This document shows, piece by piece, positions 27,501-50,902 of a DNA stretch of 64,000 nucleotides. The position numbers and the translations under genes are program-made. The notes under the pieces were generated by a model. The model searched no databases. It was not told the DNA's origin and saw only the letters and a program-made list of their open reading frames with translations. Position 1 is the stretch's first letter; the number at the start of each line of letters is the position of its first letter. Source of the stretch: an uncultured archaeon (GTDB lineage Archaea; Aenigmatarchaeota; Aenigmatarchaeia; CG10238-14; SCSR01); NCBI GenBank assembly GCA_964537835.1, contig CAZICS010000001.1, positions 54,275 through 118,274 of the forward strand, in the 5' to 3' direction.

Positions 27501-30500
27501 AGCAGTTTATGCAAATCATGCTATCTATAGGTTTCCATTCCTGCCCAACTACTCTATGCCATGCATAAACAGTAACATTCCTCCCAAACCTATCCCTTAC
27601 CCATACGCTAAAAGTAAAGTTCTCTCCCCATCCACCGCTTGAAGCTTCAACACCGTTTATGTACAAAGTTGTATTTTCTAGCAAAGGCGCATAAGTATAA
27701 ACTTTTGATTTAACGAACAATTCCTGAGTTTCGTTGAATACTTTGCCATAATTCCACCTGTATGCAAGTTTTGTTACAGAAACGTTAGCAAAAGGATTTG
27801 CTGTCGCGTCTGTATGACCAAATATTTTTATTTTTCTTGTCGCTAACTTAAACGAATCTTGAAGGTTTGGAATAATGCTCGCGTTTGCCCAAACGGTTTC
27901 TTCAGATGGTTCAAAAACATAATGTTGATGAATAGTTTGATATTCTCCGCTATCTTTAGCTATTTCTATACTCATTTCTCCTATTGTAACATTATATCCA
28001 GTGAAATGATGTAAGTGTTGAATGCCAAGCCATGTTAAACGTTCATAGGGCATGGAAGGATGCTGGAATGTGTGCATAACTTCAGTCGTGCAATTATGGT
28101 TAGAGCAGAGATATGAAACAGAATCTTCATAATAGCTTGAGCCAGTAGTGTTTTTAACCCCGAATGGTTCTAAAACTATCTTTCCTTCATAGCTACAATT
28201 CAAAGTAAAGTTGAGATACTCGCTTGATCTTGAGGGTAGCTCAGAAAGATTCCATTTAATTAATCTTTCAGTTTTGTTCCAATCGCCTGTAGTCCAAGTG
28301 ACATTACAATAACTAGGTATCGGTAGATAAATCGTCCAGTTAGTAGCGTTAACATCCCCTATGTTAGTAACTTTCAAGCTGAAGTTGTAGGTCATGTTTG
28401 GCTGGATGCTTCTAGGTTCCTCCCAGGGATAGGCCTCTCTCTGTTCTACTAGCAAGGAATATTCAAGATGGCTTTCGCTTGTATAGTTCGAAGTTTGAAG
28501 GTAGTGTCTCTTATACTCTTTTTGAATTCTTCCAGCATATTGGAGTTCCCAGTTCATATAACCTTCTGTGCTTGAAGAAGTTGGGGATTTCACTTGATAG
28601 CTTGCAACCCCATATTCGTTTACTCCTATATACCCAATAACCCAGGTTATAACATTATTCTCTAAGTCAACGCTTGCTGATACTAATTGAAGATTGCTTG
28701 ATAAAGTTGGGTTTGCTGGGGTCCACCCAGAGCTTATGTTCTCTTTCAGAGTTAGAAGCTCATTAGTAGCGGCACATCCTTTGTTGTGAATGATCAAAGC
28801 AGATTCAAAAACTTTATCTGGAGCTACATAGGTTGGAGTTTCCCTTATTATTTCTATAACTGGTTGAATAGCGTTTGATATGTTTATTTGCTTGATTTGG
28901 GTAAAGTTTAACTCTAAATCAGGATAGCTAGTGAATATACTAACATTGATACTAACATTTTCGATTGAAGATGAGGTGTTCAAGTTGAACTTGACGCTTA
29001 TTTCTTTTTCTCTATGATCATGGAAGTAGTAATAGCTTGGCTCATAACTCCATCCAGAAGGAACTTCTAAGCTAATGTTTATATCACTTTCTTCCTCTAG
29101 AGTTTTAATCACATCTACTATCACTTCTTCTGTCGTGTTTGGGCAAGTGTATTCGTTTACATAAACATAAGTCTTTGGTTTGAGGTAATCGAATTCTTCT
29201 ACTCGCTTATCTATCTCGCTTGTATTCAGTTTAAGTTCTGCTACCCAATAATAGACTTTTTCTTCAAACGTAGAAAGGTCGATATTGTAGAAGTAAGATT
29301 TGGTTATTCCGCTAGAAATTTCCAAAAATTGCTGAGTGCTTGAATAGAATACTTGCTCTCCATCTGTCAGATTTAAAGTTAAATTGCCTGAATAAGTTTC
29401 TGAGAATGGATTTGCTATTATAACAGTTAGATTAAACAAATTGCCATCTTCGCTAGACCATTGGATGTCAGAAATCTTCACCTTCCTTACAAAATATCTT
29501 TCTAAGGATATTTTGTCCACATACAAAGGTTTGTTACCTTCATTTTCTAAGAGAATTAAACACTTGCTCTCGCTACTCAACCCTATCTCATCGTTTAGAA
29601 AGTCAACTTTAGTTAGACTTAAATTCTCCCCAACTTCAAATTCTTCGAATCTTAACTTCCATTTGGTTCCATTCCAAATTTCTATTCTTGCTGTGGTACT
29701 ACCATTGGCTTCCCAGAATAATTTCAGTCTATTCAATCTTCCTATTCCACTAGTACAATTGAATTTAACCCGAAGCTTCTTCCCAGGCATCACCAAAACT
29801 TCTACCGTTGAATTATCTGCTGAAGTGCCTAGACTTACATCTTGGCTAGTAACTCTATCGGTTACATCAGTTTCATTACTTGCTTCGCTTACGTTTAACT
29901 CTTCATACTCATAGGCCTTTACTGTTGTTGAATTCCAATCTTCGTAATAGTTTATTGGTGGAATTTCATCGCTTGTATTGGCTGTTACGTTAAGCTTATA
30001 ATAAGGAGATTTTTGAGTTAAAGAAGTTACATTGATATCCCAATGAACTGGAACATATTTTGTCTCACCTAAGCCAACTTTTATCTTTCCAAGGTATTGG
30101 TTTTTGCTTGGATTGACATTCCAGTTTGGTGCAAGTAAGGTTACGTTTGTGCTTGTTGCATTTCTGTCTTTAATCCTTAAAGTAGCATTAAGGCCGAAAG
30201 GCTTGTACTGGAATACTTCCTGAGGAGCAAAAACTTGGGTAACATTAAATTCTGGGCAAGCGATATCAAGATAAACTGTATATTCGCTACTATAGCTTGA
30301 TTGATAGCAAGAGTCTGCATCGCTTACCTTAACCCTCCATTTTTGCCATCCTGGGTCATACTTACAGCTTCCATAGAATTGATAATTAAGGTAGCCAGAA
30401 GAATTCGTTTGAGCTTCGCTCGCTTCAGTGAGCCAAATGTTGGAGTTGTTTAAGGTAACTTCTACATTAACCTTTGCTGTTTCTGTTATCAATCCAGAAG

Positions 30501-33500
30501 AATCTGTATCGTTTAATGCTAGAATAAAAGTAGTTGGCTGCTCTTTTGTTACTGTATCACCATCTCCGCTTATTAGAGTGAAGCTAACATCATCTTTTTC
30601 TACAGTAAAACTATTATCATCGTTCACATAATCTCCTTCCGCAACGCTTGTTTCATAACTATTCCCTTCTGTATCCGTAGCATTGAACTTAAAGTACCAA
30701 ATGCCAATGTCAGAGCAAGAATAGCTTTCTGTCCAATAGACTATTGTCCCACTTGGATTCACTATTTGTTGTGGGGAACCAACTTGGTACCAAGGTCCTG
30801 TCAAGGAAGTTGATCTCCACAACCAAACTGTTACCGTATCTGAATCATCAGTTACATTTACAGTGAAGTTAAACGTTCTGCTCCATCCTTCGCTTCTCGG
30901 AGTTACGTTAGCTTGTTTAAGGGTTGGAATTACTTTAAGGTAGAAAGCATTTTCAAGTGTGTAACTATCGTTTATATGATAGCCTTTCTCTGCTACTATT
31001 GTAACATTATACCATCCTGCAGGTTTTCCTGAAGAATCCCAGGTGCAATTATAATATCCATTTCCTTCATCGTTCGCATACCCAGAAGAAGGACATCTCC
31101 ACCATCCGCTAGCATGAGTTAAGTTAAAGTATACGTTTGTTTGAGTAACATTTTTGAGGCAGTCATCTGTCAGGTTACCCCTTAGTCCAATTTGGTCTCC
31201 TCTTGTATAGTTAATGCTTCCGTCTGGTTGGGTAAGATAGACGCTTAGAGTTCCTATTACAGAAACTTTGAATTGCTCGCTAGTGTTATCGTACCATCCT
31301 TGGCTATTGGTTACGTTAACAACCCAGTCTTGCAAACCAGCTTCATAATTGCAACCCGGTTCAAATTGCAAGTAGTAATGAGTTGTGTTAACAGATTCTA
31401 ATTCTTCAATCCAACCAGAACCGTTCCAAATCCAGAAGTGCAGGTTTTCGGATGGGATAGAAGTTATATAACTCATTGCATCGAAGTCATAAACTCTAAC
31501 TGCTAATTCAACCCAGTTAGTGCCCTCTCTCATAACTTCTGAATTATTTCCTCCAGCAAGTTCTATTTTAATGCTATCCTTGGTTACTGTGTGGAACTGA
31601 ACAGAAGTTTCTGCTTGATTATCATGCTGGTCTGTAGCATTAAACTTGAAATACCAAGTTGTTATATTATCTTGAGTATACTCAACAGGAAAGATTACTT
31701 CCTGCTCTTGAACTGTATTGCTTACTTGAGTTTGATTAACGAGCACCCATTGCCAGCCTGTTTGAGAAGAGTTTAGCCAGAAGTAAACGGTTACCGTATC
31801 GTTATCTTCATCGCTCACGTTAACCTTGTAATAATAAGGTGAAGCTCCCCATCCACTCTTGCCAGTTGAGGAAATAACTGAAGGAGCTTCTAGGAGTGGA
31901 GTAGAGCTTAAGTAGAATTGAGTGGTATCAGATCCTGGATTGTAATAATTTTCTTCTGCATAGAATTTAACCTCATACCATCCAACTGGTTGAGAGCTAG
32001 AATCCCAAGTACAATTATACCATCCTAAACCTTCTTCTTGAGCAACACATTGGCTTACATTACCGCTTGCTAAATGGGTTAAATTAAAGTAAATAGTCGT
32101 TAATCCGGTAACATTCCTTGAGCAATCCTCAGTTACATTACCCCTCAATAAGATGGAATCTCCCTGAGTAAAGTTAGCTCCAATGGGTTGCTCTATCTTC
32201 GGAATCAAATCTGCATAAACCTTAACTGTTAAAGTAGCATATGGATAGCTTGAGTTATCCGTGTAATAAGGAGAATTGCTCACATTGACTCTCCATTTAT
32301 GCTCGCCAGCTGGATATTCGCAGCCTGGGTTGAAATCACGATAATAGTCTGTTGAATTAGCGGATTCTTCAGCTTCATTAGCTAGCCAATCACTTTCATT
32401 GTAGATGTAGAAAGTTATTTGATCTAAGGTTATGTTAGGTATTCCAGGTTGGGTTTCATTCAAAACATTCCTATCTAGCACCAAATCCCAAACTTTAGCG
32501 CTTAGCCTGATAAAACCAGAGCTTCTATTTACTGTAGAAGCATTATTACCAAAATTGCGAATTTCTATGGGTTCTTTAGTGATGTTGAAAGTATGCTGAA
32601 CTATCCAGCTTGATTCAGAATAAGTATTGTTAATATAACCGCTCAAAGAGCTTGCATTGAAGATAAATTTCCACTGACCTATGTTATTCCAAGTAAGGTT
32701 CTTCTCATGATAGAGTGAAGTTTTAGTCGGATAATTACCTTGCCATTGGTATGCTTGTACCCATCCATGAGTTTCATTCCATAACCAAAGATAAACAGTT
32801 GTGAAAGTATTATCAGGGTTGGTGACCTCTATAGTAAAGTTGAATGGAGACTTACCCCAAGGCTGATTTCCTTGAGGAAGTTTTAATGGATTATCCAATA
32901 AGATTTTGCTCCTCAAGAAGAAAACACTTTCATTGAAAGCATAACCATCCCAATATCCAGTTTTATTCGAGTAAATGCTAACATTGTACCAACCGTAAGG
33001 AAAGCTCGAGTTTGTTTGAATTTGACAAGTGCCTGTAATGTCAGCAGTGCAATTCTTCTCAAAATTGTCATGCCTTATGCTTATTATTATGGTCGAATCT
33101 ACTGTTCTATCATTACCACAATCGTCTGTTACTTTTGCTTTCAAGGTTATCATATCGCCACGAGTGAAGTTTTGACCTATTGGTTCAAGCAGCTCATTGT
33201 ACAAATCTCCTTTTAGGGTAAAGTTTAACACAGAAGTAACATTATCCTTAACGTAAGAATCTCCGCTAGTTCCACCATACCAGCTATGCAATCCTAAATA
33301 CCACTTATTTTCATCACTACACCAATAAACATTCTTATCAGCTCCTGTACCTCCACGCATAGTCCTGTTAATCCATCCATCGTTTGATGTTAGTAGAGGT
33401 GGGGAAGATTCATAGCTCCCATAAGTGAAAGCATCTAGCCATATCTTACCAAAGCTACCGGTTGGATAGGTTTTATTGTCTCTATCCCAAACTCTTACAG

Positions 33501-36500
33501 AAAATGTGGTAACCGCAGCAGACCTATTAACTATGGAATTGGGAGATGGTGTTATGTTATAAACGTTTACATCATCCTTCTCCACGCTATAATCCTTTCC
33601 ATCCAATTCAGAATTTCCGTCTGCATTACTTGCATTGAACTTGAAATGCCATGCTCCTATATCGCTTGGCAAGTAATCATAAGTAAAGTTATGCTCTTCC
33701 CATTGCAAGCAATCTATACAAGTCCAAGAATCGACTAAGCTATAAGTTCCTCCAGTCTTCTTATGCCATAGGTAAACAGTTACATTCCTCCCAAACCTAT
33801 CCCTTACTTTTACGCTAAAGTTAAACTCCTCTCCCCACCCTCCTACGCTTCTAGAAGAATCCCCATTTATATAAAGAGTAGCATTCTCAAGCAAAGGAGT
33901 ATAGGTATAAACTTTTACCTTAACAAACAACTCTTGACTTTCGTTAAACAACTTACCATAACTCCAAGTATAATTTATCTGGCTAATCGTAACATTTGCA
34001 AATTCAGACTGAATACCGTCAGCATATGCATGCAACTCCATTTTTCTTGCTTTTGAAACAAAGTTGATAGATGGATAATAAACGACGATAGCTTTGCCAT
34101 TGTAATTTGCTAGGCTATAGTTTTGCCAAGTATAAGCATAATTATCTGAATCGTCTAGCAAGTAAACGTAGCCTTCACCTATGGTTAAGTTTGATGAAGA
34201 GAAATTGTAGAGTATGGTTAGATTAATGTTTGAAATTTTTTCATAGGGCAAAGAAGGATCGTTAAATATATGCGTTACTTGGCTAGTGCAATCGCTTCCT
34301 GAGCAACTATAAGAAGTGCTATCGCTATAGGAGATTTCATTTCTTGTATCGTTTAATGCTTCTACTCTAAACAACTGTTTTCCAGTTTGAGAACAGTTCA
34401 AAGTAAAGTTCAAGTAAATGGAGCTCCTGCTTGCTAATCCAGAAATGTTCCATGCTATTGAATTTTTAGTAGCGTTTATTACGCCTCCATCATAAGCATT
34501 AATTATTTCGCAAGTCGATGGAATGAACAATTCGACGCTCCAATTACCGCTTGTTACATCCCCTATGTTAGTAACTTTCAAGCTGAAGTTGTAGGTCATG
34601 TTTGGCTGGATGCTTCTAGGTTCCTCCCAGGGATAGGTTTCTCTTTGAATGGCTATCAAATTAAACTCTAGATGAGATTCACCCGAATAATTTGCTGTAT
34701 AGAATTTATAGTTTTCAAATTCTCGTAATTGTTTATTACCATCATAAGTTAAGTTCCACCGAGCATAACCCTCTTCAGCGTTGCTAACAGGTGCTTTTAT
34801 CTGATAGGATAGAACAGCATATTTATTAATGCCAATACTTCCAAGTTGCCATGTTATTAGATTATTCTCTAGGTTGACGCTTGTTGAAACCAGCTGAATA
34901 TCTCCTTCTATTCCTGGGTTTGCCGGAGTCCACCCAGGCTTAATGTTTTCTTGTAAAGTCAAATTATTTACTGGAGCACATCCCTTGTTGTGAACTATTA
35001 GCTTGCTTTCAAAAACTTTGCTTGCTCCTATGTAGCGTGGAGTTTCTCTTATTACTTCAATAACTCCTTGGTTAGCATTAGTCAGGCTTATGTTTTGTTT
35101 TGTTGTAGCTTGCTTATGAGGTAATTGGTATACAATTGAAACATTTAGGTTAGCTGTTTCTTCTGAGCTAGAAGAGGTTAAATTAAATTTAGCTTCATAA
35201 GTTTTTTCTTCATCAGCATTTATTAAAATGTAGGCTGGAGAGTAACTCCATCCAGAAGGAACTTCTAAGCTAACATTATAAGTAACCTTATCTTGATAAG
35301 CATGAGGTATCAAAACTTTCAGGCTTTCGGTAGTTGAAGGACAAATGTATGGATTATATCTTGTCTCATAACTTACATTCTTCCTTACTATACTCTCTAT
35401 TAACTGGCTTGAATTTCCATCATAGAAAATATAAGCTTTTATGTAATAAGTTCCAGCAGACCAGCCACTAACATTTATGTTTTCGATAGCTTCGCTGGTT
35501 ATAGCTCCTTGTGCCAAAGAAACTGTTTTATGAGTGTAGTTTACCACATTGTTACTTTCATCTGTCAGATTAACCCAAAGGTCTGCGTTTATCGTCTGAG
35601 CCAGAGAATTGAAAATTTTTACAGTAACATTTAGGTAATTATCTGCTAAATCTAAACTATAAGTTTCACTTTCGCTTACAGAAGGAACTATATCAACAAC
35701 TTTTGCCTTTCTTTCAAGATACGCTTTCATGGTCGCAGAATTTATTTGCACCTCATTTTCTCCTAGGTTTTCTATTCTAAGCAAGCAATGTCCAGTTCCA
35801 TTCGGTGAAAGGAATTGTTTAATCAATCGAATATCCTCTGTCACATCCCCAGAAACTGGAAGATAGTTTACTATCTCAACAAATTGAGTTGAGTTATAAA
35901 TGTAAATTCTAACTTCACTTCCAGCACTTGAATTCATTCCCATTGTAAATGAAGTTAGTCTATAATCTGCAGCTAGGCAATTAAATGCTAAATCTTGATG
36001 CTCATCGGGCGAAACTGTTAAAGGTAATGAGCTGGATGGGCTTGCTTGATAGTATTCATAATTTTTAACAAAGAATGAAACAGAATCCTCTATTCCGAAT
36101 GAATTGTTAACTTTAATCGTTAGGTTAAATCTACCAGAAGTAGTTGCGTTTACAAGCCAGGTAACATCTTTTGTAGAACCTTGAGCAACACCTCCTAAGT
36201 ATTTAACTCTATTATCAACTTGCCATTCTGAGGGTGCAATCAATTCGGCATAGACTTCGCTCGAGTCTGCTACATAGCTTGTTATCGTTGCCTTGATAGT
36301 AAAGTTTTTGTATTGTAAGGTTTCGTTAGGATGATAATAAAATTCAATCGAAGGAGTTGCCTGACAGCCGGTTAAATCTAAAGTTATGGTGAAATTCTCG
36401 CTAATGTTGTAATTATAAGCAGGGTCATCGCTAGCTATATAAGCACGCCATTCTTGATTTCCATTAACATATTCACAAGTTGGTTGGAATTCTAAGGTTG

Positions 36501-39500
36501 CGTAGCCGGCAGAATCTGTGTAAGCATTTCCTATAACCTTTTTACCTTCAGGATAATTAGCATGCAATAATTCAAAGGTTACTTTTGCGCTTGGAGTTAA
36601 ATTATAAGTTTGTGCTATCAAGTCATAAACTTTAACAGATAGATTGACAGCTTGGCTTAAGCTTGCTAAAGAATTATTTCCTTGATCTCCGTATTCGATG
36701 CTTACATTATCTTTGGTTAAAGTAAAGCTGTCATAACCAGAGGTCGATTCTGTAGCTAACTCAAACTTAAAGAACCAAGTTCCTATATCCTGATAGGTGA
36801 AATTCTTGTACCAATAAATTTGTTTGTTCAGGCAATCAGGATATTTGCAAGTCACTGGAGTTTGATTAACACAATCGCTACATTCGGTAAAGCCTGTGGG
36901 CGAAGTTTTTGCTAGCAAGATCTTCACATCATTAGGATTAGTATCACCGCTTGATGCAATCACGCTGAAATTCCAATTCCTATATCCCCAGCCATGGGAA
37001 GTTGGAACAACCTGCGGATTTTCAAGCTTATAAATCGGATAAAGATAGAATAAACCATTTTCTCCATAATCAGCAGTTTGGTTTGGATAATGGTATTCCT
37101 TTTCTGCCATCATAGTTGTATTATACCAACCCATTGGTGTAGTTATGTTAGTCTCCCAGTCGCAAGTGAAAGCGTTTGAACCTACTTGCGAAACTGGTGT
37201 GCATTCAAAATCTTGAGTTGAATGATTTGCAAAATATCTTACATTCGCTGTTAACGCATCACCACAATCATCTGTAGTTGCACCCAAGAAGCTTATCACA
37301 TCCTCTTGCGTGTAATTAACGCTTCCATCAGGCTTAACAAAATCTAAGATTATATCTCCTTTTACAGTTAGATAGGTTGGGATGTAATCAGAAGAATCGT
37401 TCGAGAAATAGCAGTTAAGCATTGAATCATTAACAACAACTTTCCATTGCTGCTGACCAACTTGGAATTTGGGTGCACCTTCATAATCTCCGCTACAAGT
37501 AGGGTTAAAGTAAAGTTTTACATATCCATCTGAATCGGTCAAATTCTCAAAGTTTGAATCAGAATAATAAGTTGATCCATCGATAGTTACATAAAACTTG
37601 ACTGCAAAATTTGCCAGATAGCTTGAATTTTCATCTTTAACTCTAAATTCTAATAGGTCTACTTGATTTCCTCTTCTATTTGCGATCGAATTATTACCGT
37701 AAATGTATTCTAGGTAAACCTTTTCTTTAGTTATTTCAAACTGATGCTCTGCAGTTTCATTAACGTTTGAAGAATTATCTTCAATTCTAAACTTATACTT
37801 AGCAACTGGGGTTATATCTGAGCAGCTAAATCTTGCAGTAAAATCTATTCTTTTCCAATTTGAACAGGCTAAGCATTGAGTTTTATTGATTTCTTTCCAT
37901 CCAGATCCAGTGTCTACATACAAAGTAATGTTTAAATCATCGCCTTCTCCATCCATTACTTCAATTGAAAAGTTCCAAAGAGTTGCCCAGCCTGCTGAAG
38001 CACCTTCCGTTACTCCATTAACACTTTCATTCGCATGCTTTGGCGGCCAGTTTACGTTAACATAAACCGTGAAATTGTCAGAGCGGTTGTATGCATAGCA
38101 GCTTGAAAGTATAGTGTCTACATAGCCATACCATCTTCTAGTTCCTGTCGTGAAATCTTGGTCCGGAAGGAAGTAGAAGTAAACATGACCAGAAGAATTC
38201 GTTTTATTATTTCCCACATACTTTTCAGGACCCTCATAGCTTGTTGTTGTAACGTTAAACTTTATATAAAGGTCTTCGGTTATTTCTTCAGTTGGATAAT
38301 CTAGATCTTTTGCTTTTAAAATAAATTCTGCTGGTGTTAAAGGTGTTGCAGTAGTTTCATTTCCTGAAACATATTCAATAACTATACTATCTTTTGAAAT
38401 ACTGAACGCTTGAGGAGTAGTTTCTCTTGCATTCCCCTCCGTATCTGTAACATTAAACTTGAAGTTGCGCGAAGGATTAGCAAGATCTGAGCATGTATAA
38501 TTCTTTGTCCACCATAGAATTGTTCCATCACAATTTGTACATTGCTTTGGCTGACCTATTTGAACCCAATTTCCTGAGCCAGCTGGAACTTCTTCCCAAA
38601 GATAGACTGTATCCGTATCTCCCGCATTATCAGTAACATTTATAGTAAAGTTTCTCTCTATACCCCATCCACCAGATGAAGGTGTTACAGTTGGATTATT
38701 AAGAACTGGAGCAAACTTAAGATAGAATGCATTTTCCTTAAAGTCGTAACCATCCCAGTGTTTTGATTTATTAGAAGTCATGGTAACATTGTACCATCCT
38801 GTAGGTGCTCCAGAAGGTAAGGTTATTTCCTTGTAATAAGCCCCCTGTTCAGCTGAATAGAAAACTTGGGTTGAGTAAGTATAAGTGCCGTGGGTAAGAT
38901 TAAAGTAAACAGTAGCATCAGTTATAGTATTTCCACAATCATCGGTTACTGTTCCTTTTAATGGTATAGAGGAATCTTGGGTATAATTGGTTGAACCATC
39001 AGGAAGTAGGATTTGATTAGTTAAAGAACCCTTGAGGAAGAAATCCATCTCACTAGTTGCATTATCTTCCCAGCATACATCATCTTTAACTCCCATTTGC
39101 CACTTGTGGGTTCCTAAATAGTACTTGCTCGTATCACTACACCAGTCATAATGGCTAAATTCTTGCACAAAATATCCTGTAGAGTTAGTGGAAACAGGCC
39201 ATTGGCCAATTTGATTATAAGAATAAATGGACATGTTAAATTTACCGGTAGCTCCATCAGCAGGTTGGTTTAAAGTTGTGTCTTGGACATGAAGTATGAA
39301 TTGAGTTTTTGAAGCACTCCTGTTAATTGTTGCATCGGCATTGGGTGTAATCAGTGTTATAGCATCCTTATTTTTCTCTAAAGTAATTGTCATTATGGGA
39401 TAATCCTCTGGCTCAAAATTCCATGTCTGATTTCTCGTGCATCCACCTCCATTACAATCGGTTGAGTCATCTGTAGCATTAAAGAACCATTCCCATACAT

Positions 39501-42500
39501 TTGATTGGGCTCTGTCAGTGCATGTATAGGTGTAAGTAAGGTTTACGGTACATGGTGAGGATTGAGAACAGCTAGAAAGCCAGTTTGTTTGATTTGCTAA
39601 GATCCATGTTGTCGAACCATAGGGTCTATGCCATAAGTAAACTTTTATACTATCTCCCTGTTTATCATAAACTTGGACATTAAAACTTCTCCTCACACCC
39701 CAACTATCAGATTGAGGAACTGCATGAGGACTAATAAAATGAGGTCTTGTATCTTTTCCACACCAAGTATAGTTTATTTTATACGATGCCATTCCACCTC
39801 CATTTCCAGATGATTGGAGATGTATAGTAAATGGAAAATCACTCTCAGTGTAAGTTCCTGATGGTACATCACATGCACCAGGATAAGTTCCTGTATCACA
39901 TGCACTACCTCCACAAGATGTTGCTAATCTATTTGTTCCACCGCTGACACAAGTATAAGCTTCACATTCCTGTCCATTATCAACATTCCTACACCATGGA
40001 TATCTTGTGGTAGAACCATCAGAAAAGCTAACGTAATGGATACCTCCAGTAGCACCACTTTGTGAGCTAATTGATGCCCAGGCATGAATCCATATTTCGT
40101 TTATATAACAATTTATAGTATCTTCTCTACACCTACCCTCAGGAGTGAAGTAATAATCGTTTCCACTACCAGTCGCTGCATGTCCAGATAGTGGTTCTTC
40201 GAACCATAAGCAATATTCATCGCTTGCTGGAGGGTCCGTAAGTAGAAGCCATCTTCTTGCTTCTTCATAAATCCTACTATCGTAAACAATTCTTGCTCTA
40301 ATCTCGTAAAGATAAGGATATTTCACTGGTGTCTTAAAAGTATACTGAACAGAGCTTCCATTAGATAAGTTCCAAGAAATTACTTTGCTATTAGAGGTTT
40401 CGTCTAAAATACCGGACGTATTTAAAATTTCAAAATCTGTTGGCAAAATTTCTTGCAAAGTAAAGTTAGAAATATTCTCGAAGGAAACAACTTTCATGCT
40501 GGAGAAGAAAGGAGGTAGTAATGGGTCTATTCTTATGGGTGTAGCTCTTATGAATTGGAAGCTTATGTTCTTTTCTACAACAAAATTAGAATAAATGTAG
40601 CTGTTTGTGTCCTTTCCTTTAACAACAGCAAATAAGGAGTAATTACCAACTTCCAATGTTTCATTGAAGAAAGCATAATAAGTTCCTACCTTCCCTTCTT
40701 TTATGCTTCCATCTTTTGTTGAAAGGTAGTAATGTTTTCCCGAGGGAGATTCTATAGTTAGTTTTATATCAGCTCCTGAAACTGGCTTTCCTTCATCATC
40801 GACAACAGCAAATAAAAGCTTAACACTTTCACCTGGATAATATCTATCCCTTTCCGAGTTAACAACAATGAGCCCCTGCTTAATTATAATATCTCTTTCA
40901 TGAATACCGTTGGTCAAATGTATCTTGTAGGGACTTAATCTAAAAGATCCTCTTAGATCTAACTTTACTCTGTAAACTCCTGGTTTAATTTCATCTACTT
41001 CTAGGAATTCCAGTGATAATTCTTCTTCCCTCCATTCTAGACATTCATTACTTTTCTTGAGAAAATCTTTGAAAATAGCAAATAAACTAGAGCTTAAAGG
41101 TAGAGGATTTGTTGCATTAAGTTTCTCTGGAGAAAATGCTATTTTTATTCCTCTTTCATCACTTTCTACATAAAATTCTGGATTTGGGACATAACAATTT
41201 AAAACCCATCCGAATTCTTCACTCTCCATCCAAGTGCAAGCGTAGGTTGAAATTACATGAGTTACAGAGGAAAGAGATGGTATGATCCATTCTAAAGTAT
41301 CAGGAATTTCGTCTTCATCCGTATCCAAAAGCGTATAGTTAAGGCTATAGTTAAACAAGCTTACTTCAAGGTCGAAGTCTTCTATTCCTTCTGGGATTTT
41401 AGTCCTTACTCTTATATTCGTATAATGCAAGGGGGCAGAGACATTTACTATTTTCTTCCAACCACTGTCAAAAATTATCTCTTCTTCCTTAATAGGGGCT
41501 GGGGTTGAATAGCTTACGATATATTCCTTGAAGCTTTCTGAAGGGATACGGGTTATGAGGAAGTAAGTTGAATTTAACCTAACTATTGGAGTTTCATTTT
41601 TTTCTATAGTAATATTAAAAGCCAATGGAGTAATGTTGAAGGTAGCGTTATATTCTTCCATATAAGAAGGTGTTGTGACTCTTACTATTTTCCTCCATCT
41701 TACTGGAACACCTACTATGGCTTCATCCTGTATTTCTTCTGTGTTTATTTTCACATCCTCGCAGATAACAAGAATTTTGATTAATTCTTCAAGCTTAGCT
41801 CTATAACCCTGAGCAAGGATCGAAATTTCTCCTAAACCACAAGCTTGAGCTGAAAAATTCAGTTTAACTTCCTTGCTTTCATCGGGAGAAGTAAACTCTA
41901 AAGGAAAGCTCGAATTTTCAAAAACTTGCTCGTCAACCTGAGCATTTAAAAACTCAAAACCTGTATAATTTATTGTAAGATTAATGAATGCTAGCGTACT
42001 CTTTAAAGTAAAATTGACAGAAAATTCTTGACTTAGGTTTAGTTTTTTGGGATAGGATAAGTTTTCTATGAAAATTAGCGGCTTAACTATTTTGAATGAT
42101 TTATTAGGCATAGAAACATTAAAGTTACCAAAAATGTCTCCTGCAAATGTTCTTCTCCACGTATAATTTCCTTCTAGTTGGGATGAAAAAATTGCCACAT
42201 ATTTTTCTCCAATCTTGTTTGTGGTTAGGTTAAATGTTTCGTTCGGTGATTCGACTTCAAACAATACCTGTTTAACTTTTATGTTATCCTCTACTCTTGC
42301 TGAAAGGTTAAGGGTTTCACCTATGTAAAGAAAATCTGTGCTTAATTCCTCATCATAGATTAAAGGAGCTTGCTTATCAGTTACGTTTACCGTTAAATTA
42401 AAAGCAGTAAAATTCTCAATAGAGTCTGCCTTTCCAAGAACTAGATAGGTGCCATTTTCAGCGAATAAAGCTTGAATTTCTAATAAAAAGGTTTTGTTAA

Positions 42501-45168: not shown

Positions 45169-45342
45169 TCAAAAACACTTTGTACGCTAGCGTACAACAG
45201 ATCTGTATAGATCTTAATAAAGAAAATGTTTGTCGACGGTGATAAACCTAAGCTTTAACAAAAATTTCGAAAGTTCCGACACTTCGAAGGTTAAAAAAAT
45301 TGTCGAAAGTTACTTTAAAATACCAAAAAGTTCAAAATTATT
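45169..45342. promoter_or_regulatory. Divergent intergenic promoter region between the giant gene (minus) and the wHTH regulator gene (plus). It has TATA-like boxes on both strands and palindromic candidate operators.
   Basis: Plus strand: tttaaaata at 45315..45323 lies about 20-28 bp upstream of ATG 45343, implying a leaderless mRNA. Minus strand: ctttattaag-like A/T box near 45212..45222, about 45 bp upstream of ATG 45168. Palindromes lie between that box and the start codon. Confidence 0.5.
45181..45206. promoter_or_regulatory. Perfect 16-bp palindrome tgtacgctagcgtaca (45181..45196) immediately followed by a perfect 10-bp palindrome acagatctgt (45197..45206). Candidate operator 13-38 bp upstream of the giant-gene start.
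   Basis: Direct reading: both are exact reverse-complement palindromes. They are GC-containing in an AT-rich intergenic region and lie between the putative TATA box and the ATG of the giant gene. Confidence 0.5.
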
Positions 45343-45738
45343 ATGATGTTGAAAGGTTTTTTGAACAAGAAAACTCAGGAAGAAAGTGTCGAAAATATAA
45401 TTAAGAGGCTTGACATGCAATACGCTCATCTAGCTTTAGAGTTTGAAAAAATTAAGCTCTTGAACGAAAAAATCGAAAAATTGAATTCAAAGATTAGAGA
45501 GATTGAGGAAATGATTTCTCGTGGTATCAAGTTTCAGTCGAGAAGTGTGTCGACAAGAACAAAAGAAGCAATTAAACTAATCCTTAAAAAATATGGAGAG
45601 TTGACTTCTGAGCAACTAAGCAAAATACTTAAACTGTCGAGAACGAGGTGTAACGAGTACCTGAAAGAGATGGAAGAAGAGGGAATAGCCAAGTCAAGAA
45701 TTTTCTGTCGAAAAAAGCTATATTCTCTTCGACAGTAA
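45343..45738 (+). CDS. Small coiled-coil plus C-terminal winged-helix DNA-binding protein, a putative transcriptional regulator.
   Basis: 131 aa. The N-terminal half is coiled-coil (LEFEKIKLLNEKIEKLNSKIREIEEMI). The C-terminus GELTSEQLSKILKLSRTRCNEYLKEMEEEGIAKS is HTH/wHTH-like. It is divergently transcribed from the giant gene. Confidence 0.6.
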   Translation: MMLKGFLNKKTQEESVENIIKRLDMQYAHLALEFEKIKLLNEKIEKLNSKIREIEEMISRGIKFQSRSVSTRTKEAIKLILKKYGELTSEQLSKILKLSRTRCNEYLKEMEEEGIAKSRIFCRKKLYSLRQ

Positions 45739-45773
45739 GTTTTTTTCTCAAATTTAAAAGTTTAAAACTTAGT

Positions 45774-46574
45774 ATGAAAAATATGAACAGGTTAAAGGTA
45801 TGGGTAAAAGGAATGAAATTACTAAGGGCTTTTTATGGTATTTTGCTTGCATTGTTGGGTGCTTATCTTACAAACAATCTCGACTTTTTCATTCTATTTA
45901 AAGTACTAGCTGTTTTCTTTGCTTGGGAATATACTGTAGTTTTAAACAATATTTATGATCTGGAAATAGATAAACTTGCTAAGAATGAAAATCCGTTTCT
46001 GCTTAAGCTAATCGAAAAAGAGGAATACCTTAAACTCGGTATTACGATGGGATTAATAGCTATAGTTTTCTCCTTTTTTCCTTCAATGATGGTAACACTT
46101 TTAATTTTGCTTGCACTTTTTCTAGGAACCATTTATTCTGTGCCTCCTTTAAGACTTAGAAGATATCCCTTAACCTCTTGTTTCATTGCTATAGGTAGTG
46201 TGATTTCATTAATGATAGGTATGCTCCCTTGCGAGCTATATAATTATGCAATTCTCTTTTTAGTTATTTTCTTTAGTGTTTCTATAGGTACTTTAATAAG
46301 AGATTTGGAGAGCTACGAGGCTGATAAAAAAGCTGGAGTTAAAACGATATTTACTTTGCTAGGAAAAGAAGAGGGGAAAAAGGTAGTTTCATCTCTCTTA
46401 TTTCTCTCTTTCCTTCCACCTATCTTGCTTTTTCAAAAAATATTCTTTCTCTTCATTTTAGGAGGATTCTTCTCTTCCCTCCTTTTTTTCAAAACTGAAA
46501 ATTATAGGTTAGTTATGCTCATAGTCATGGGATTGTTCATAGTATGTGCCCTTCAACTGAAAGGCCTTTTTTAA
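45774..46574 (+). CDS. UbiA-family prenyltransferase (for example a DGGGP-synthase-like enzyme).
   Basis: Multi-TM protein with an Asp-rich motif NNIYDLEIDK (N-x-x-x-D-x-x-x-D) and an IYSVPPLRLRR motif typical of UbiA (YS.pPlRlKr). Confidence 0.65.
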   Translation: MKNMNRLKVWVKGMKLLRAFYGILLALLGAYLTNNLDFFILFKVLAVFFAWEYTVVLNNIYDLEIDKLAKNENPFLLKLIEKEEYLKLGITMGLIAIVFSFFPSMMVTLLILLALFLGTIYSVPPLRLRRYPLTSCFIAIGSVISLMIGMLPCELYNYAILFLVIFFSVSIGTLIRDLESYEADKKAGVKTIFTLLGKEEGKKVVSSLLFLSFLPPILLFQKIFFLFILGGFFSSLLFFKTENYRLVMLIVMGLFIVCALQLKGLF

Positions 46575-46633
46575 AGGTTTTTACAAAGTTACTCATCAAT
46601 AAAAATTTAACTTAAATTTTTGAAAACTAAATT

Positions 46634-47758
46634 ATGCAATTTATTTCAAGAATTCAGAAGCTGATAGCTTCCCTTGAAAAGGAAAGGTTCAGTATTTTTT
46701 CAATTTTTTGGCTAGTTGTGATAATAGGTATAGTAAGAGCCTATGTAGAAGAAATTTGTTTTACTGGTAATATCAGCATTTGGTCTCTTAATGAAAATGA
46801 TATAATGACCTCCCTTGCCGCCTTCTTTGGATGTACTTTCTTAGTTTCAATCTTTTCGAAAGAAAGGATCAAAAAAGTATGGAATGCTACGATATTATTC
46901 TGGCCTATCTTTATTTCCCCTCCTATAATAGACTATTTATTCTTCGGTGGTTGTTCCCGATTTTCTTATGAATTTGTTTTTTTGAATAAGGTTGATTTAA
47001 CCCTCTTATTCCCGCCCTTATATTTTATTCAAGCTGGTGTATCGCCAGGACTTGTAATAGAATATATAGCTGTTATTTTGGCTCTGGTGTATGTTTATAT
47101 AAAATCTCACTCAATAAAAAGAACTTCCCTTTTCTACATTTTTTTAAATATTCCTGGATACTTGCTAGTAATTCATCCTCTCCCTCTCTTAGCAAACTTC
47201 GATATAGTATGGCAACTTAAAGCGTTGCCCTTTGCCTATGAATGGTATTATTTTCTGTTTACAGGGTCTTCTCTCTTAATTTTTATCTTTAATAGGAAGA
47301 AGTTAAAAATTCCAAGAAAAATCATAATCTTTCTCATCCCATTAACAATCTTCTATGCACTTGGGGTATTCCTTTCCTTTTACCAGTCTCCTAAACCTTT
47401 TTCCCAACTTCTCAAATTTTCTACTTCCTTTTTCCCATTTTTAGCTTTTTTCTTACTCCAAGAACCCTCTAAACTGAAAAAGGATATAGCATTTATATGC
47501 TTATCTTTCTCTCCTTTCCTATCCTTATATTTAAAGAATATCTATGTAACAACTCTTTCTACTATCCTATCACTTTTGGTTTTTCTTTGGTATAAGCTTA
47601 GAAAATTCCCCAGAATTTTCCTTACAATTCTCCTTACATCTTCTTTCTTTTTTGGATACTTTGCTTATGGTTCGATTAATCCCATAAACAAATTTTTCTT
47701 TGTTTTTCCATTATTAGGGGTTATTTCTTTTATAATAACTATTTTAGCAAAACCCTAA
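46634..47758 (+). CDS. Polytopic integral membrane protein of unknown function.
   Basis: 374 aa with about 10 hydrophobic helices and no recognisable catalytic motif. Confidence 0.5.
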   Translation: MQFISRIQKLIASLEKERFSIFSIFWLVVIIGIVRAYVEEICFTGNISIWSLNENDIMTSLAAFFGCTFLVSIFSKERIKKVWNATILFWPIFISPPIIDYLFFGGCSRFSYEFVFLNKVDLTLLFPPLYFIQAGVSPGLVIEYIAVILALVYVYIKSHSIKRTSLFYIFLNIPGYLLVIHPLPLLANFDIVWQLKALPFAYEWYYFLFTGSSLLIFIFNRKKLKIPRKIIIFLIPLTIFYALGVFLSFYQSPKPFSQLLKFSTSFFPFLAFFLLQEPSKLKKDIAFICLSFSPFLSLYLKNIYVTTLSTILSLLVFLWYKLRKFPRIFLTILLTSSFFFGYFAYGSINPINKFFFVFPLLGVISFIITILAKP

Positions 47759-47761
47759 AAA

Positions 47762-48907
47762 TTAAATCGTTTTTTCACTCAATTCTATCCCCTTTTTCAC
47801 AATCCAAAAATCTTTAATTTTAAGAAAGAACTTAGGTTTTAAAAGGAATTTTAGGAATATTTCAAGGTAAGAAACTTTTCTCCAATCTTTCTCGCTATAA
47901 ACATATCCAATAAAATTTAATTCTTCATTCTTGAATGAATAAAATATCTCACCAGCTTTTTTAAGAATGGGATTGCAAAAAGGACTGTTTCTAAGTTTAT
48001 CCTCATATTCTTTCAACAAGGAAATATCATCAAACTCAAAAGTTTTACAAATGGTTTCTCCAGCTAGTTTACCACTAAATAAAGCAGCATGGATACCCCC
48101 TCCAAATAGGGGATTGGTTAAACCTGCAGCATCACCAACAATTAGAGCAGATTGTTTTACAAAATTTTTTAATGTATAGTTTTTTGGTATAATTCCAGCA
48201 TTCACAGATATTTTTTTATTAAGGTCAAAGCCATTGGATTTACAAAAATCATCCAACCATTTTCCAATATTTCCAATCCCACCAACACCTACATTAAATT
48301 CATCTCCTCTAGGAAATACCCATGCATACCCGTTTTTGAATCTGGCATTTAGAAACATACACAAAAATTCATTTTCTGGGAAGCTGGATGATTTAAATTT
48401 ATATTGAATAGCTGTAACAAATTCTTTTTTTCTTAAGAGATTAAGCCAAGATGCTATATTAGCTTCTGGACCGTCTGCTCCTACTAAAATATGAGATTTG
48501 AAGATTCCTCTGTCCGTTTTTACATGCCACAATTTTTTCTTTCTAATTCCGCTTGCATTTGTTTTTAAAAGAAGTTTGCACCCATAGTCAATCGCTTCTT
48601 TAATTAGCCACTGGTCAAATTTAGCACGGTCTATTGAGTAGGATTTAGTGAAGGAAAAAAAGAAGTTACCATCCGGGACAAAAATTTTAATACCTTTATG
48701 CTTTTTTTTAACCCATTCTTTACATGGTTTTAATTTACTGTTTTTTAAGCCAAACTTGCTTATCACTTCACCACATTGAATAGGGTACCCCACTTTCTTT
48801 TTTTTATCTATAACTAAAACAGAATACCCTTTCTTAGAAAGGATTCTAGCTGTCATTCCTCCTGCAGGACCCGCCCCTACTATTATTACATCGTATATCA
48901 TAATCAA
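47762..48907 (-). CDS. Geranylgeranyl reductase family FAD-dependent oxidoreductase (archaeal lipid saturation).
   Basis: N-terminus MIMIYDVIIVGAGPAGGMTARILSKKGYSVLVIDKKKKVGYPIQCGE matches the GGR signature YDVvVvGaGPaG...CGg. Later motifs GADGPEANIA and VGDAAG match the FAD-binding signature. Confidence 0.8.
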   Translation of the reverse strand: MIMIYDVIIVGAGPAGGMTARILSKKGYSVLVIDKKKKVGYPIQCGEVISKFGLKNSKLKPCKEWVKKKHKGIKIFVPDGNFFFSFTKSYSIDRAKFDQWLIKEAIDYGCKLLLKTNASGIRKKKLWHVKTDRGIFKSHILVGADGPEANIASWLNLLRKKEFVTAIQYKFKSSSFPENEFLCMFLNARFKNGYAWVFPRGDEFNVGVGGIGNIGKWLDDFCKSNGFDLNKKISVNAGIIPKNYTLKNFVKQSALIVGDAAGLTNPLFGGGIHAALFSGKLAGETICKTFEFDDISLLKEYEDKLRNSPFCNPILKKAGEIFYSFKNEELNFIGYVYSEKDWRKVSYLEIFLKFLLKPKFFLKIKDFWIVKKGIELSEKTI

Positions 48908-48955
48908 ATACTCGGCTTTTCTAGAAATAAAAATTTAAATGTTAACTTTCTATAA

Positions 48956-49567
48956 ATGAAGGGAAAAATGAAATCAGAAAGATTTCTCATAGAAGCTCTA
49001 TATATCCTGGTTAACACACCTGAAAAAAGAGAAAAAGCAGTAAGTATGCTTAGGAGTATACAAGATTTTTTCTTGAAAAATAAATTTCATTATTCTATTG
49101 GTAGGATTTTAAGCAATTTTACTCTATCTCACCAAATACTTTCTTTTAAAGAAATGGAATCTTTGATAGAAAATGCTGAAGAAATAGTGATAACTTATTG
49201 TTCTTGTCAAGATTATAGTATAAAAGAGCTTTATGATGGAAGAAAAGAGTTTTATTTCAGTTGGGATGAAGATAGTATCGAGAAATTGAAGAAAATGGTA
49301 AGGCCAAGTATACATTATTGCTTTGAAAAGGGCGGTCTTGCTCCTTTTGTTAAAAAATTCTGGAATGATTGGATAGAGTTAGATAAAAAAGAAGCATTAG
49401 ATTTATGCAAGATTTATAAGGAGCATGGAGCTTTATTTACTTCTACAAGAATAAATCCACTTAAAAGGCCTGTAGGAGGAATATGTACATGCTTCAACTT
49501 GTACAATACCTGCATAAACCTTAGGCAACACTTACTAAAACTAGGTAAGGTAGAATTTCCTGAATGA
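48956..49567 (+). CDS. Hypothetical protein with Cys motifs (CSCQDY ... CTCFNLYNTC).
   Basis: 203-aa ORF with coding-like composition; no recognised family. Confidence 0.45.
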   Translation: MKGKMKSERFLIEALYILVNTPEKREKAVSMLRSIQDFFLKNKFHYSIGRILSNFTLSHQILSFKEMESLIENAEEIVITYCSCQDYSIKELYDGRKEFYFSWDEDSIEKLKKMVRPSIHYCFEKGGLAPFVKKFWNDWIELDKKEALDLCKIYKEHGALFTSTRINPLKRPVGGICTCFNLYNTCINLRQHLLKLGKVEFPE

Positions 49568-49597
49568 TATAAAAATTTTTGTGAACAAAAATTAAAT

Positions 49598-50014
49598 ATG
49601 GTTAAAAGATTTTTGATTACAATTATTTTGTTAATAGCCTTCTTTTTCTCCCTCTTCTTAATTTCTTATAAAAAATCATTCACAGGTTATCAAGTATCCT
49701 CAGGATTTTACATAACCCTAGATTCTATTGGGTTTATGATTTTTGGAGGTATAATAGTGCTCAGTGTTTTGATGGGAAAGTTTAAGAGAGATATTTTTAT
49801 TTTCACTTCTGGCGCAATTTTAGGATTTTTAGTAGAATGGTATGGTATCTCAAGAGAAATTTGGTCCTATCCTCATGGTCAACAACTCCCACCCCTTCTT
49901 ATGATATTGGCATGGGGTGTTGTAACCCTCTCAAGCTACCATTTATCCTTAATTTTGAGAACAGCTACTAAGAAGCTTTTAAAAATAATCAAAAAATCAA
50001 AGGAAAAGGGATAG
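49598..50014 (+). CDS. Small membrane protein (3-4 TM helices), hypothetical.
   Basis: 138-aa hydrophobic ORF that overlaps the convergent gene at 49997..50902 by 18 nt. Confidence 0.45.
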   Translation: MVKRFLITIILLIAFFFSLFLISYKKSFTGYQVSSGFYITLDSIGFMIFGGIIVLSVLMGKFKRDIFIFTSGAILGFLVEWYGISREIWSYPHGQQLPPLLMILAWGVVTLSSYHLSLILRTATKKLLKIIKKSKEKG

Positions 50015-50902
50015 TGCAGTAAAGAGTAGTGGATATCTGGTCATCATAAACCAAATTCGCATCTTTGGAGCGTATTTTTTAGCTGCTTCTTCCAAATCTT
50101 TCCCCTTATTAACAAGATAAACTTCTTTAGATGCATGAGATATACCTAAAGATAGAATAATGAGCATCAGATAAGAAATGCTTGAAAGTGATTTAGCCCC
50201 GAATAAAAAAGGTGCCAAGCAAAGAAAACCTGCGGTTGAAAAAAGAAATGCTAGCAATAAAGTTTTTTTCAGTCCAAAAACATGGGCCCATGTTTTTATC
50301 CCCTCTTCCCTATCTTCAGAATAATCTTCACAAGTATTTACCAAGGTAAAACCTTCGTTCATCAGAGCATATCCGGCAACAAAGAGTAAAAAGTGAAGAG
50401 GTAATGAATAATTAAAAAGAAACCAGCCTGCTAGAATGGGTAGGGTATAGAGACCAACGAGCACAGGAACTGGGCTAAGTATACCTCTTTTTTTAATCCT
50501 AAGAGGTTCCATCGAATAGGATATACCAAAAAATAAGCCTAGGATTGAAAGTAGTGCTGTGATAAAGTAACCTCCTTGAAATAGATATGCAATTAAAAAA
50601 GAAATTAAGAGGAGTTCCAAAACTAAAATTATCTTAACATTTTTAATTCCCATCGATTTTACCGCATTACTCAAATAAGTTTTGTACTTCCCATCTACTT
50701 TCAAATCACAAAGGCAATTTAAATTGCAGGAGAAGGTTAGTATGGTAAAGAATAGAACTATGTAAGCAAGAATATATTGGCTAAGAAGCATTTCTAAACT
50801 AGTAATCCCTAAGAGTATGCCTAAGACTGCTGTTGGTAATGAAGCGATTTGAATGTTTGCTCTGCTAATTTTTAAAAAATTTAAAATGAATTTTTTGACC
50901 AT
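49997..50902 (-). CDS. UbiA-family prenyltransferase-like membrane protein (second copy).
   Basis: Multi-TM protein. ISYSMEPLRIKKRG parallels the UbiA motif YS.pPlRlKr, and the Asp-containing segment CDLKVDGKY is weaker evidence. Confidence 0.5.
   Translation of the reverse strand: MVKKFILNFLKISRANIQIASLPTAVLGILLGITSLEMLLSQYILAYIVLFFTILTFSCNLNCLCDLKVDGKYKTYLSNAVKSMGIKNVKIILVLELLLISFLIAYLFQGGYFITALLSILGLFFGISYSMEPLRIKKRGILSPVPVLVGLYTLPILAGWFLFNYSLPLHFLLFVAGYALMNEGFTLVNTCEDYSEDREEGIKTWAHVFGLKKTLLLAFLFSTAGFLCLAPFLFGAKSLSSISYLMLIILSLGISHASKEVYLVNKGKDLEEAAKKYAPKMRIWFMMTRYPLLFTALSLFL

Follow-up and report, generated by a model that had tools for sequence, protein, structure and literature searches.

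Conserved candidate operators between the divergent genes of a giant membrane protein and a small winged helix-turn-helix protein in Aenigmatarchaeota

We analysed a stretch of 64,000 nucleotides from an uncultured archaeon of the Aenigmatarchaeota (contig CAZICS010000001.1; the whole stretch is called the window below), in which a spacer of 174 bp (45169..45342) separates two divergent open reading frames (ORFs): a giant one on the minus strand, encoding a membrane protein, and a small one on the plus strand, each with a winged helix-turn-helix (wHTH) domain. Comparison of related loci indicates that the palindromes in this spacer are real control sites, kept in about 100 related loci of the Aenigmatarchaeota. 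The reading we favour, with a probability of about 60%, is that the spacer serves as an archaeal promoter in both directions and carries two operator systems: the giant gene would be repressed by the wHTH head of its own product, and both genes would be controlled by the small wHTH protein. We hold with much greater confidence that two of its elements, a perfect 18-bp palindrome (dyad 1) and the TGTCGA boxes, are functional conserved cis-elements.

The initial annotation, made from the letters of the window, had read the palindromes as operators, probably bound by the small wHTH protein, by the wHTH of the giant protein or by both. The comparative data favour the operator reading and allow the two assignments to be separated, with dyad 1 probably belonging to the giant head and the TGTCGA boxes to the small protein. 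That annotation had overlooked the TGTCGA array, the run of the array into both coding regions, and the fact that its 10-bp palindrome is part of a 16-bp near-dyad. The divergent flanking ORFs and both wHTH domains that it described are real: the N-terminus of the giant protein matches Pfam HTH_IclR (31.7 bits, cut-off 22, E=1.3e-7) within residues 9-55, where MarR_2 also matches (27.7 bits, cut-off 27), and the small protein matches HTH_24 (32.7 bits, cut-off 21.9, E=5e-8).

Orthologous genome loci were gathered via the small protein and comprise 31 loci (L006..L036) and the close relatives L001..L005; counts are over 32 loci. An independent metagenome sample was gathered with the wHTH of the membrane protein as bait (L072..L151, 65 non-identical loci), and paralogue loci (L037..L071, n=35) were examined as well. 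In the metagenome sample dyad 1 was called at ≥10/12 matches and ≤90 nt from the start codon, with 2371 windows from the same metagenome loci as background. Orthologues of the small protein occur throughout the phylum, are all about 130 residues long and share 40-91% identity, with an invariant recognition helix, LSRTRCNEY (KLSRTRCNEYLKEME). In most loci the divergent neighbour encodes a module of the giant type: a wHTH of the form PEGLT..GLHRHTssKYlHEL..AKLCYLK, with a nearly invariant recognition helix (HRHT..KY), followed by a linker and a membrane helix. Sister lineages carry the same wHTH head on proteins of 240-350 residues, with separate genes rich in immunoglobulin-like (Ig) domains after it.

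Both palindromes named in the initial annotation are present: the 16-bp TGTACGCTAGCGTACA lies at 45181..45196 and extends to the perfect 18-bp TTGTACGCTAGCGTACAA (45180..45197), and the perfect 10-bp ACAGATCTGT lies at 45197..45206. They might be functionless chance features of an AT-rich spacer (the window has a GC content of 35%). Of Markov-shuffled 64-kb sequences, 43% contain a perfect 18-bp palindrome, one palindrome of 22 bp and another of 16 bp lie elsewhere in the window, and a 10-bp palindrome is expected 0.23 times per spacer and is alone not significant; a palindrome of at least 16 bp is expected 0.005 times in one 174-bp spacer. Because shuffled sequences often hold equal palindromes, significance comes from conservation and not from the palindromes as such, and it is here that the chance reading fails: the elements are conserved in a position-specific pattern over about 100 loci, down to 40% protein identity, and dyad 1 occurs in only 5 of 2371 background windows. 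Commonness throughout the genome, which the initial annotation had set as a refuting condition, was not borne out: the window has a single copy of dyad 1, and copies are rare in the roughly 700 kb of related DNA surveyed. Chance is refuted for dyad 1 and the boxes and is possible only for the exact 10-bp string ACAGATCTGT; as an account of the palindromes as a whole it is extremely improbable. The longest palindrome of the window, the perfect 22-bp AAAAACATGGGCCCATGTTTTT (50276..50297), lies within an ORF at 49997..50902 (-).

Dyad 1 is found in 21 of the 32 orthologous genome loci, whose proteins share 40-87% identity, within a few nucleotides of the start codon of the membrane-protein gene, and in 52 of the 65 metagenome loci, where its distance to the start codon is 1-48 nt, mostly 9-33 nt, with 9-12, 16 and 32 nt the usual values. 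In the dyad-bearing metagenome loci this gene encodes an N-terminal module of wHTH and membrane helix, as in the giant protein. Relatives of about 85% identity in which the wHTH head is retained (L005, L006 and L008) conserve the dyad perfectly. Its half-site GTACAACA is nearly invariant, and its 6-nt centre is lineage-specific (GCTAGC, GAATTC, AATATT, ACTAGT, ACCGGT or AACGTT). Of the 30 different sequences of dyad 1, 29 have complementary letters at positions 7 and 12, and 19 have a palindromic centre of 4 nt, against 1/16 by chance. Dyad 1 therefore shows the sequence hallmarks of a dyad operator bound by a dimer, namely two-fold symmetry, conserved half-sites and a fixed place relative to the gene.

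The same symmetry could in principle belong to RNA, with the dyads forming hairpins in the 5′ leader of the giant-gene mRNA that affect stability or translation, rather than DNA operators. The leader would fold into two short hairpins, its stem positions covary (positions 7 and 12 of dyad 1; the arms of dyad 2), and dyad 1 probably lies downstream of the transcription start in some lineages. Yet the leader fold is no better than that of shuffled sequences (z=-1.5; 17 of 200 shuffles as good), and a scan of 44800..45900 against Rfam returned no more than two snoRNA matches, both below threshold (24 and 21 bits, with thresholds of 42 and 45). Conservation extends to the letters of the half-site and is not limited to their pairing potential, and the centre of a hairpin cannot pair, so the symmetry of the central 4 nt points to a two-fold symmetric protein on double-stranded DNA. 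A group of lineages with a short spacer (L012, L015, L020, L021 and L032) is also hard to reconcile with a leader element: here the order is TCGACAAAC-ATTTTCTAT-G-dyad 1-GAG-ATG, dyad 1 fills the 24 nt between A/T box and start codon, and the mRNA of the membrane protein is probably leaderless. We consider the hairpin reading very unlikely.

The distribution of dyad 1 suggests which protein it goes with. It is absent, and the boxes are kept, where the divergent gene has no wHTH (L007 and L001-4, L028, L029, L030, L031 and L035); at its place in L007 and L001-4 only TGTACGTACA remains. In L016 the wHTH is truncated and the dyad mutated. Two loci, L146 and L147, have the dyad with neither a small gene nor boxes, none of the 35 paralogue loci has it, and where head paralogues have a different helix (MSRITATKY), a different dyad (TGTTTAACA) occupies the corresponding position. 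From this co-occurrence we infer a link between dyad 1 and the membrane protein's wHTH head.

The second symmetric element, dyad 2 (AGATCTGTATAGATCT), holds most of the 10-bp palindrome ACAGATCTGT. The initial annotation had treated that palindrome as an element in its own right, which conservation does not bear out: it is identical in L010 and absent in the closest relatives (L005, L006 and L008). Dyad 2 is absent in these three and in the short-spacer group, and other lineages have AAATCTGGCCAGATTT, AAATCCGGCCGGATTT, ATTTGGCCAAAT and AGTCTAGACT as its positional homologues. In about 19 of 31 loci the 26 nt distal to dyad 1 contain a perfect palindrome of at least 8 bp; among random windows the share is 9.6%.

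The TGTCGA boxes are arrayed over about 1.2 kb (44543..45734) and reach into both coding regions. The window has 24 copies of TGTCGA on both strands, 11 of them in the array and 9 of these in 44964..45734, and there is none in the next 17 kb after it; CpG is two-fold depleted in the window, and its highest density per 500 nt starts at 45155. Over the 32 loci, the spacer has 11.4 boxes per kb, the small gene 7.1, the first 750 nt of the membrane-protein gene 3.75 and the flanks 0.3-0.4. In orthologues three boxes have fixed places upstream of the small gene: one in plus orientation at about -113, with AGAAAATGTT before it and ATAWA 5 nt after it, an inverted one at about -68, and one in plus orientation at about -45 or -22, beside the TATA box of the small gene. 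Two smaller repeats of the initial annotation find their place here. Its inverted repeat ttcgaaag...acttcgaa has both halves (TTCGAAAG at 45266, ACTTCGAA at 45281) but merely flanks a degenerate inverted box, CCGACA (45276..45281), and its tgtcgaaa repeat (TGTCGAAA), present at 45301 with further copies at 45387 and 45706, contains a box. Box-to-box spacing peaks at 23, 35, 45 and 94 nt; as these peaks mainly reflect conserved site positions in related loci, we draw no general spacing rule from them.

Within the small gene the boxes occupy different codon phases, and one of them coincides with the recognition helix. The codons for K-L-S-R in this helix are AAA CTG TCG AGA in 25 of the 32 genome-locus small genes, and (C/T)TG TCG AGR is found in 27 of 28 further small genes from metagenome loci, although CTG makes up 4% of the Leu codons and TCG 5.7% of the Ser codons in the genome. 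Codon choice is free at the adjacent T, C, N, E, Y and L. Since the residues are invariant and rare codons are kept beside free ones, selection acts at the nucleotide level. The boxes occur in 58 of the 59 metagenome loci with a divergent small gene and in 1 of the 6 without (Fisher p=4e-6), and box clusters also adjoin the small-protein paralogues that have the LSRTRCNEY helix (L037..L071); by this co-occurrence the boxes appear to go with the small protein.

An array of this extent might chiefly be structural or chromosomal, with regulation secondary: the small protein could nucleate on it and spread, as in a centromere-like or silencing domain. The 9-11 boxes over about 1.2 kb, conserved ones in two coding regions among them, would suit such a role, as would the long coiled-coil-like helix of the small protein, which is apt for oligomerisation. 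However, genes for a partition ATPase or Orc1 are absent from the vicinity, close relatives have different genes beside the small gene, and the boxes abut the A/T promoter boxes. Each genome has several paralogous clusters, each beside its own paralogue gene, and therefore autoregulated transcription factors fit better than a single chromosomal site. We regard a chiefly structural array as quite unlikely. A replication origin or partition site was set aside on similar grounds: Orc1 and ParA/SegA genes are missing from the vicinity, and each genome has more than one of the paralogous clusters.

The arrangement of the elements suggests how such a promoter might work. On the minus strand the order is box 1 (TCGACA), AAC, A/T box (ATTTTCTTTATTAAG), dyad 2, dyad 1, 11 nt and ATG, and the transcription start of the giant gene, expected about 23 nt past the A/T box, would fall inside dyad 1. 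Archaeal repressors at sites downstream of the TATA box block polymerase recruitment. The favoured reading takes the pairing of proteins with sites, the sign of regulation and the transcription starts from the observed positions, conservation, co-occurrence and synonymous constraint. By it, dyads 1 and 2, downstream of the TATA-like box of the giant gene, would lie over the expected transcription start, and a dimer of the N-terminal wHTH of the giant protein itself would most likely occupy dyad 1 as a site of two-fold symmetry. The giant protein would then be a single-pass transmembrane transcription regulator whose binding blocks polymerase recruitment, resulting in negative autoregulation of its gene. 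Because the wHTH is made first and its gene adjoins the site, it could plausibly act in cis over the long time taken to synthesise the 43-kb message. The TGTCGA boxes, for their part, would most likely be bound by the small coiled-coil wHTH protein: one lies beside the B recognition element (BRE)/TATA region of each divergent promoter, one between them and more within both coding regions, and the domain that they make up, about 1.2 kb long, probably serves to repress or tune both genes, perhaps with oligomerisation of the small protein or looping via its N-terminal helix. At the small gene, the proximal box lies between TATA box and start codon in other lineages, and either box position would interfere with TBP/TFB or polymerase. 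The mRNA of the small gene is probably leaderless, because its putative TATA box lies about 25 nt before the ATG. The conserved element GATAAAC may be a second promoter element or part of a binding site.

Several observations weigh against this reading. A single deletion of the 5′ end of the gene together with the adjacent upstream DNA could trivially explain the joint loss of dyad 1 and wHTH. As dyad 1 lies 1-48 nt from the start codon, it keeps no constant distance to the transcription start and would be part of the transcript in some lineages. The arms of dyad 2 change symmetrically across lineages while the recognition helices of both local proteins are invariant, and therefore a third factor, a structural role or a role in promoter melting is possible for dyad 2. 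The orientation of the boxes relative to transcription differs between the two promoters. Finally, the loci are phylogenetically related, so that counts overstate independent events, and both motifs were surveyed in genome fragments only.

Some of these points would favour a different assignment of the same operators, in which dyad 1 and/or dyad 2 is bound by the small wHTH protein or by a third, unlinked regulator, and the giant wHTH binds something else or has a non-regulatory role. The co-occurrence of dyad and wHTH head may only reflect their physical linkage, and dyad 2 changes symmetrically between lineages beside two invariant recognition helices. This alternative has difficulty, however, with the small-protein paralogues, which have the same helix and the boxes and never the dyad (0/35 loci), with the persistence of the dyad in L146 and L147 in the absence of a small gene, and with the switch of dyad type together with the helix type of the membrane-protein paralogue. 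We consider it unlikely and retain binding of dyad 1 by the giant head and of the boxes by the small protein as the favoured reading. The coordinates of all elements are collected in Table 1.

Table 1 Features of the spacer, the flanking genes and the box array (positions in the window).
Feature	Position	Strand	Remarks
Giant gene	2458..45168	-	14236 aa; wHTH, membrane helix, Ig-rich ectodomain, membrane helix/helices, HerA-like ATPase
Three boxes in 5′ part of giant gene	44543..44969	.	44543 (-), 44676 (-), 44964 (+)
Single membrane helix of giant protein, coding part	44821..44895	-	aa 92-116, after wHTH and linker; from hydropathy scan
N-terminal, probably cytoplasmic wHTH of giant protein, coding part	44974..45168	-	aa 1-65; helix GLHRHTSSKYLHEL
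Dyad 1, perfect 18-bp palindrome TTGTACGCTAGCGTACAA	45180..45197	.	consensus TTGTAC-N6-GTACAA(CA); 12-29 nt upstream of giant-gene ATG
Dyad 2, AGATCTGTATAGATCT	45199..45214	.	AGATCT-N4-AGATCT near-dyad, 14/16 symmetric; between TATA-like box and dyad 1
A/T-rich TATA-like box of giant gene	45214..45222	-	minus strand TTTATTAAG; equivalent A/T box in orthologues
Conserved block AGAAAATGTT and TGTCGA box 1 (45231..45236)	45223..45236	+	minus strand TCGACAAACATTTTCT, directly upstream of giant-gene TATA-like box
Conserved A/T element GATAAAC	45242..45248	+	5 nt after box 1 (TGTCGA-N5-ATAWA pattern)
Degenerate inverted box 2, CCGACA	45276..45281	-	TCGACA in most orthologues; flanked by TTCGAA motifs at 45266 and 45283
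TGTCGA box 3 (TGTCGAAA)	45301..45308	+	7 nt upstream of small-gene TATA box
Putative TATA box of small gene, TTTAAAATA	45314..45322	+	about 25 nt before ATG; position conserved in alignment
Small regulator gene	45343..45738	+	131 aa; long helix residues 16-59, wHTH 69-129, invariant helix LSRTRCNEYLKEME
TGTCGA box in small gene	45387..45392	+	codons S-V-E
Palindromic double box TGTCGACA in small gene	45548..45555	.
TGTCGA box in small gene	45635..45640	+	L-S-R codons CTG TCG AGA of recognition helix; synonymous constraint
TGTCGA box in small gene	45706..45711	+	codons C-R (TGT CGA)
Inverted box TCGACA in small gene	45729..45734	-	codons L-R-Q-stop (CTT CGA CAG)

The membrane helix of the giant protein (19-residue Kyte-Doolittle mean 2.28 in residues 92-116) is kept in orthologues and is joined to the wHTH by a Lys/Glu-rich linker. 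Its N-side is positively charged (KKWGVGRKSQVK), which suggests that the wHTH faces the cytoplasm. About 13,700 residues of the protein are rich in NxS/T and Ig-like domains. At its C-terminus, hydrophobic segments near residues ~13836-13868 are followed by a cytoplasmic P-loop ATPase of the HerA/FtsK type (about 2461..3900, -), with a Walker A motif GTGSGKT and a match to Pfam DUF87 (E=1.5e-9); NCBIfam matches to CedD, HerA and TraD are weak and far under their cut-offs. The DNA-binding head and the translocase-like tail would share one side of the membrane. A Hint/intein-like module (residues 243-403; about 43960..44442, -) opens with Ser1 (SYDEETKVLT), has a block B (VTEGHKL) and ends in ...VWSSN followed by Leu, with a match to Pfam Intein_splicing (E=1.7e-4) that is under the cut-off. 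It sits where the orthologous gene splits into a wHTH-membrane protein of 240-350 residues and Ig-rich ORFs (L005, L006, L008, L009, L011 and L014); the gene is unsplit in L010, L012 and L015. Self-cleavage at this module might mimic the gene split of the sister lineages.

The small gene probably starts at the second of its two adjacent ATGs (45343..45348), at 45346, which gives a protein of 130 residues, because the aligned relatives all have this length. In an AlphaFold model of the small protein (mean pLDDT, the predicted local distance difference test score, 86.7) the wHTH core (69-129) superposes on MarR and ArsR/SmtB regulators (AdcR 5jls, CadC 1u2w, HlyU and CzrA); in contrast to these, dimerisation would use the single long N-terminal helix (16-59). 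Foldseek with this model returned generic MarR/ArsR folds and no informative specific relative, a sequence search of solved structures with both proteins gave generic coiled-coil and wHTH matches only, and none of the solved structures and curated NCBIfam/Pfam families matches the whole small protein.

Membership of known families was considered for both proteins. The giant protein has the HTH_IclR domain only, with no IclR C-terminal domain in Pfam scans, and as the effector domain is lacking, it is not a member of the IclR family. The small protein falls below the Pfam cut-off for TrmB (22.4 bits, cut-off 25.6). With NCBIfam, both were rejected for Lrs14 (16.8, cut-off 90) and for ArsR/SmtB (HTH_metalloreg, 16.3 and 27.6, cut-off 55), and neither reaches any curated NCBIfam cut-off.

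Transmembrane transcription regulators (TTRs) constitute a recognised and widespread class, of which the single-pass type is the commonest (PMC10269533), and ArnR and ArnR1 of Sulfolobus are archaeal membrane-bound one-component regulators (PMC6396743). The giant protein has the two features that define the class in sequence, a predicted DNA-binding domain and at least one transmembrane region (PMC10269533). Like the bacterial ToxR, CadC and TcpP and like ArnR/ArnR1, it would combine a cytoplasmic DNA-binding domain, a membrane helix and an extracytoplasmic part, and like them it would be expected to act on DNA from the membrane. Unlike them, it has a wHTH of about 65 residues, similar to those of ArsR, IclR and MarR, at the extreme N-terminus of a protein of 14,236 residues, which otherwise consists of a surface part, Ig-rich and probably glycosylated, and a HerA-like ATPase at the C-terminus. 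ArnR is further set apart by membrane helices at its C-terminus and a HAMP domain.

Divergent promoters under autoregulation through dyad operators are classical for repressors of the MarR, ArsR and IclR types, and the archaeal repressors MDR1, Phr and LrpA bind downstream of the TATA box. The spacer resembles such promoters in its 18-bp symmetric site between a TATA-like box and the regulator's own start codon, in the wHTH fold and in the divergent pairing of the genes. It differs from them in having two different wHTH proteins and two or three motif classes in one spacer, in the extension of one motif class as an array into both coding regions with constraint on synonymous codons, and in the membrane anchor of one regulator.

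Paralogous modules occur in the same genomes (L055, L056, L061, L041, L062, L069 and L034:7192; L047 and L051). Paralogous heads with the helix MSRITATKYVHEL have a dyad of the TGTTTAACA type just before the ATG, those with IPRQTVSKYVYAL have direct repeats (TAGACATTGG), and many lie near a paralogue of the small wHTH protein that has a TGTCGA cluster of its own, which suggests that the paired regulators form an expanded family. Literature searches on the motif, on regulators of Aenigmatarchaeota and on giant DPANN proteins found the general TTR concept and ArnR and no prior description of the module, which differs from the known cases in its head on a surface protein of this size, its second, cytoplasmic wHTH, its array into both genes and its paralogous modules with dyads of their own.

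Among other features of the region, the spacer is rich in restriction sites (NheI, BglII, SalI, HindIII and BstBI), which the dyads and boxes themselves account for. AAGCTT occurs 92 times in the 64 kb, against 15-18 times for 6-bp palindromes of comparable composition (AGATCT 15, TTCGAA 18, GCTAGC 15). About 5 kb (45774..50902) from the small wHTH gene to a GH57 gene hold two prenyltransferases of the UbiA type, a geranylgeranyl-reductase-like gene and membrane proteins; this is a lineage-specific insertion or deletion, since it is absent in L001-L005, where the GH57 gene directly follows the small gene. An ORF of 646 residues without a Pfam family (537..2477, -) overlaps the stop of the giant gene by 20 nt and because of this overlap is probably co-transcribed with it. 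A tRNA scan of the window found none.

Taken jointly, the parts of the locus could make up a feedback device from cell surface to genome, a reading that we think rather unlikely. In it, the giant adhesin of an episymbiotic archaeon would bear its own transcription-factor head, which would bind in cis to the promoter of its own gene before translation of the 43-kb message and insertion of the protein are complete. The state of the ectodomain, its assembly or contact with the host would be reported directly to transcription, the Hint-like domain (residues 243-403) would cut off or uncouple the head exactly at the gene split of the sister lineages, and the small wHTH protein would coat the 1.2-kb box array, including the codon-constrained sites in its own gene.

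To our knowledge, gene regulation in DPANN archaea and the control of their giant surface proteins are almost wholly unexplored. The locus supplies two sequence-defined candidate operators and two candidate regulators, together with natural variants across the clade: genes without the head, split and fused genes, and paralogous modules with different dyads. It also offers a clear case of selection at the DNA level on synonymous codons, in the sequence that encodes a regulator's own recognition helix. If the head does regulate its own gene, the giant protein would be by far the largest transmembrane transcription regulator described, and it would link cell-surface adhesion to transcription in a host-dependent archaeon.

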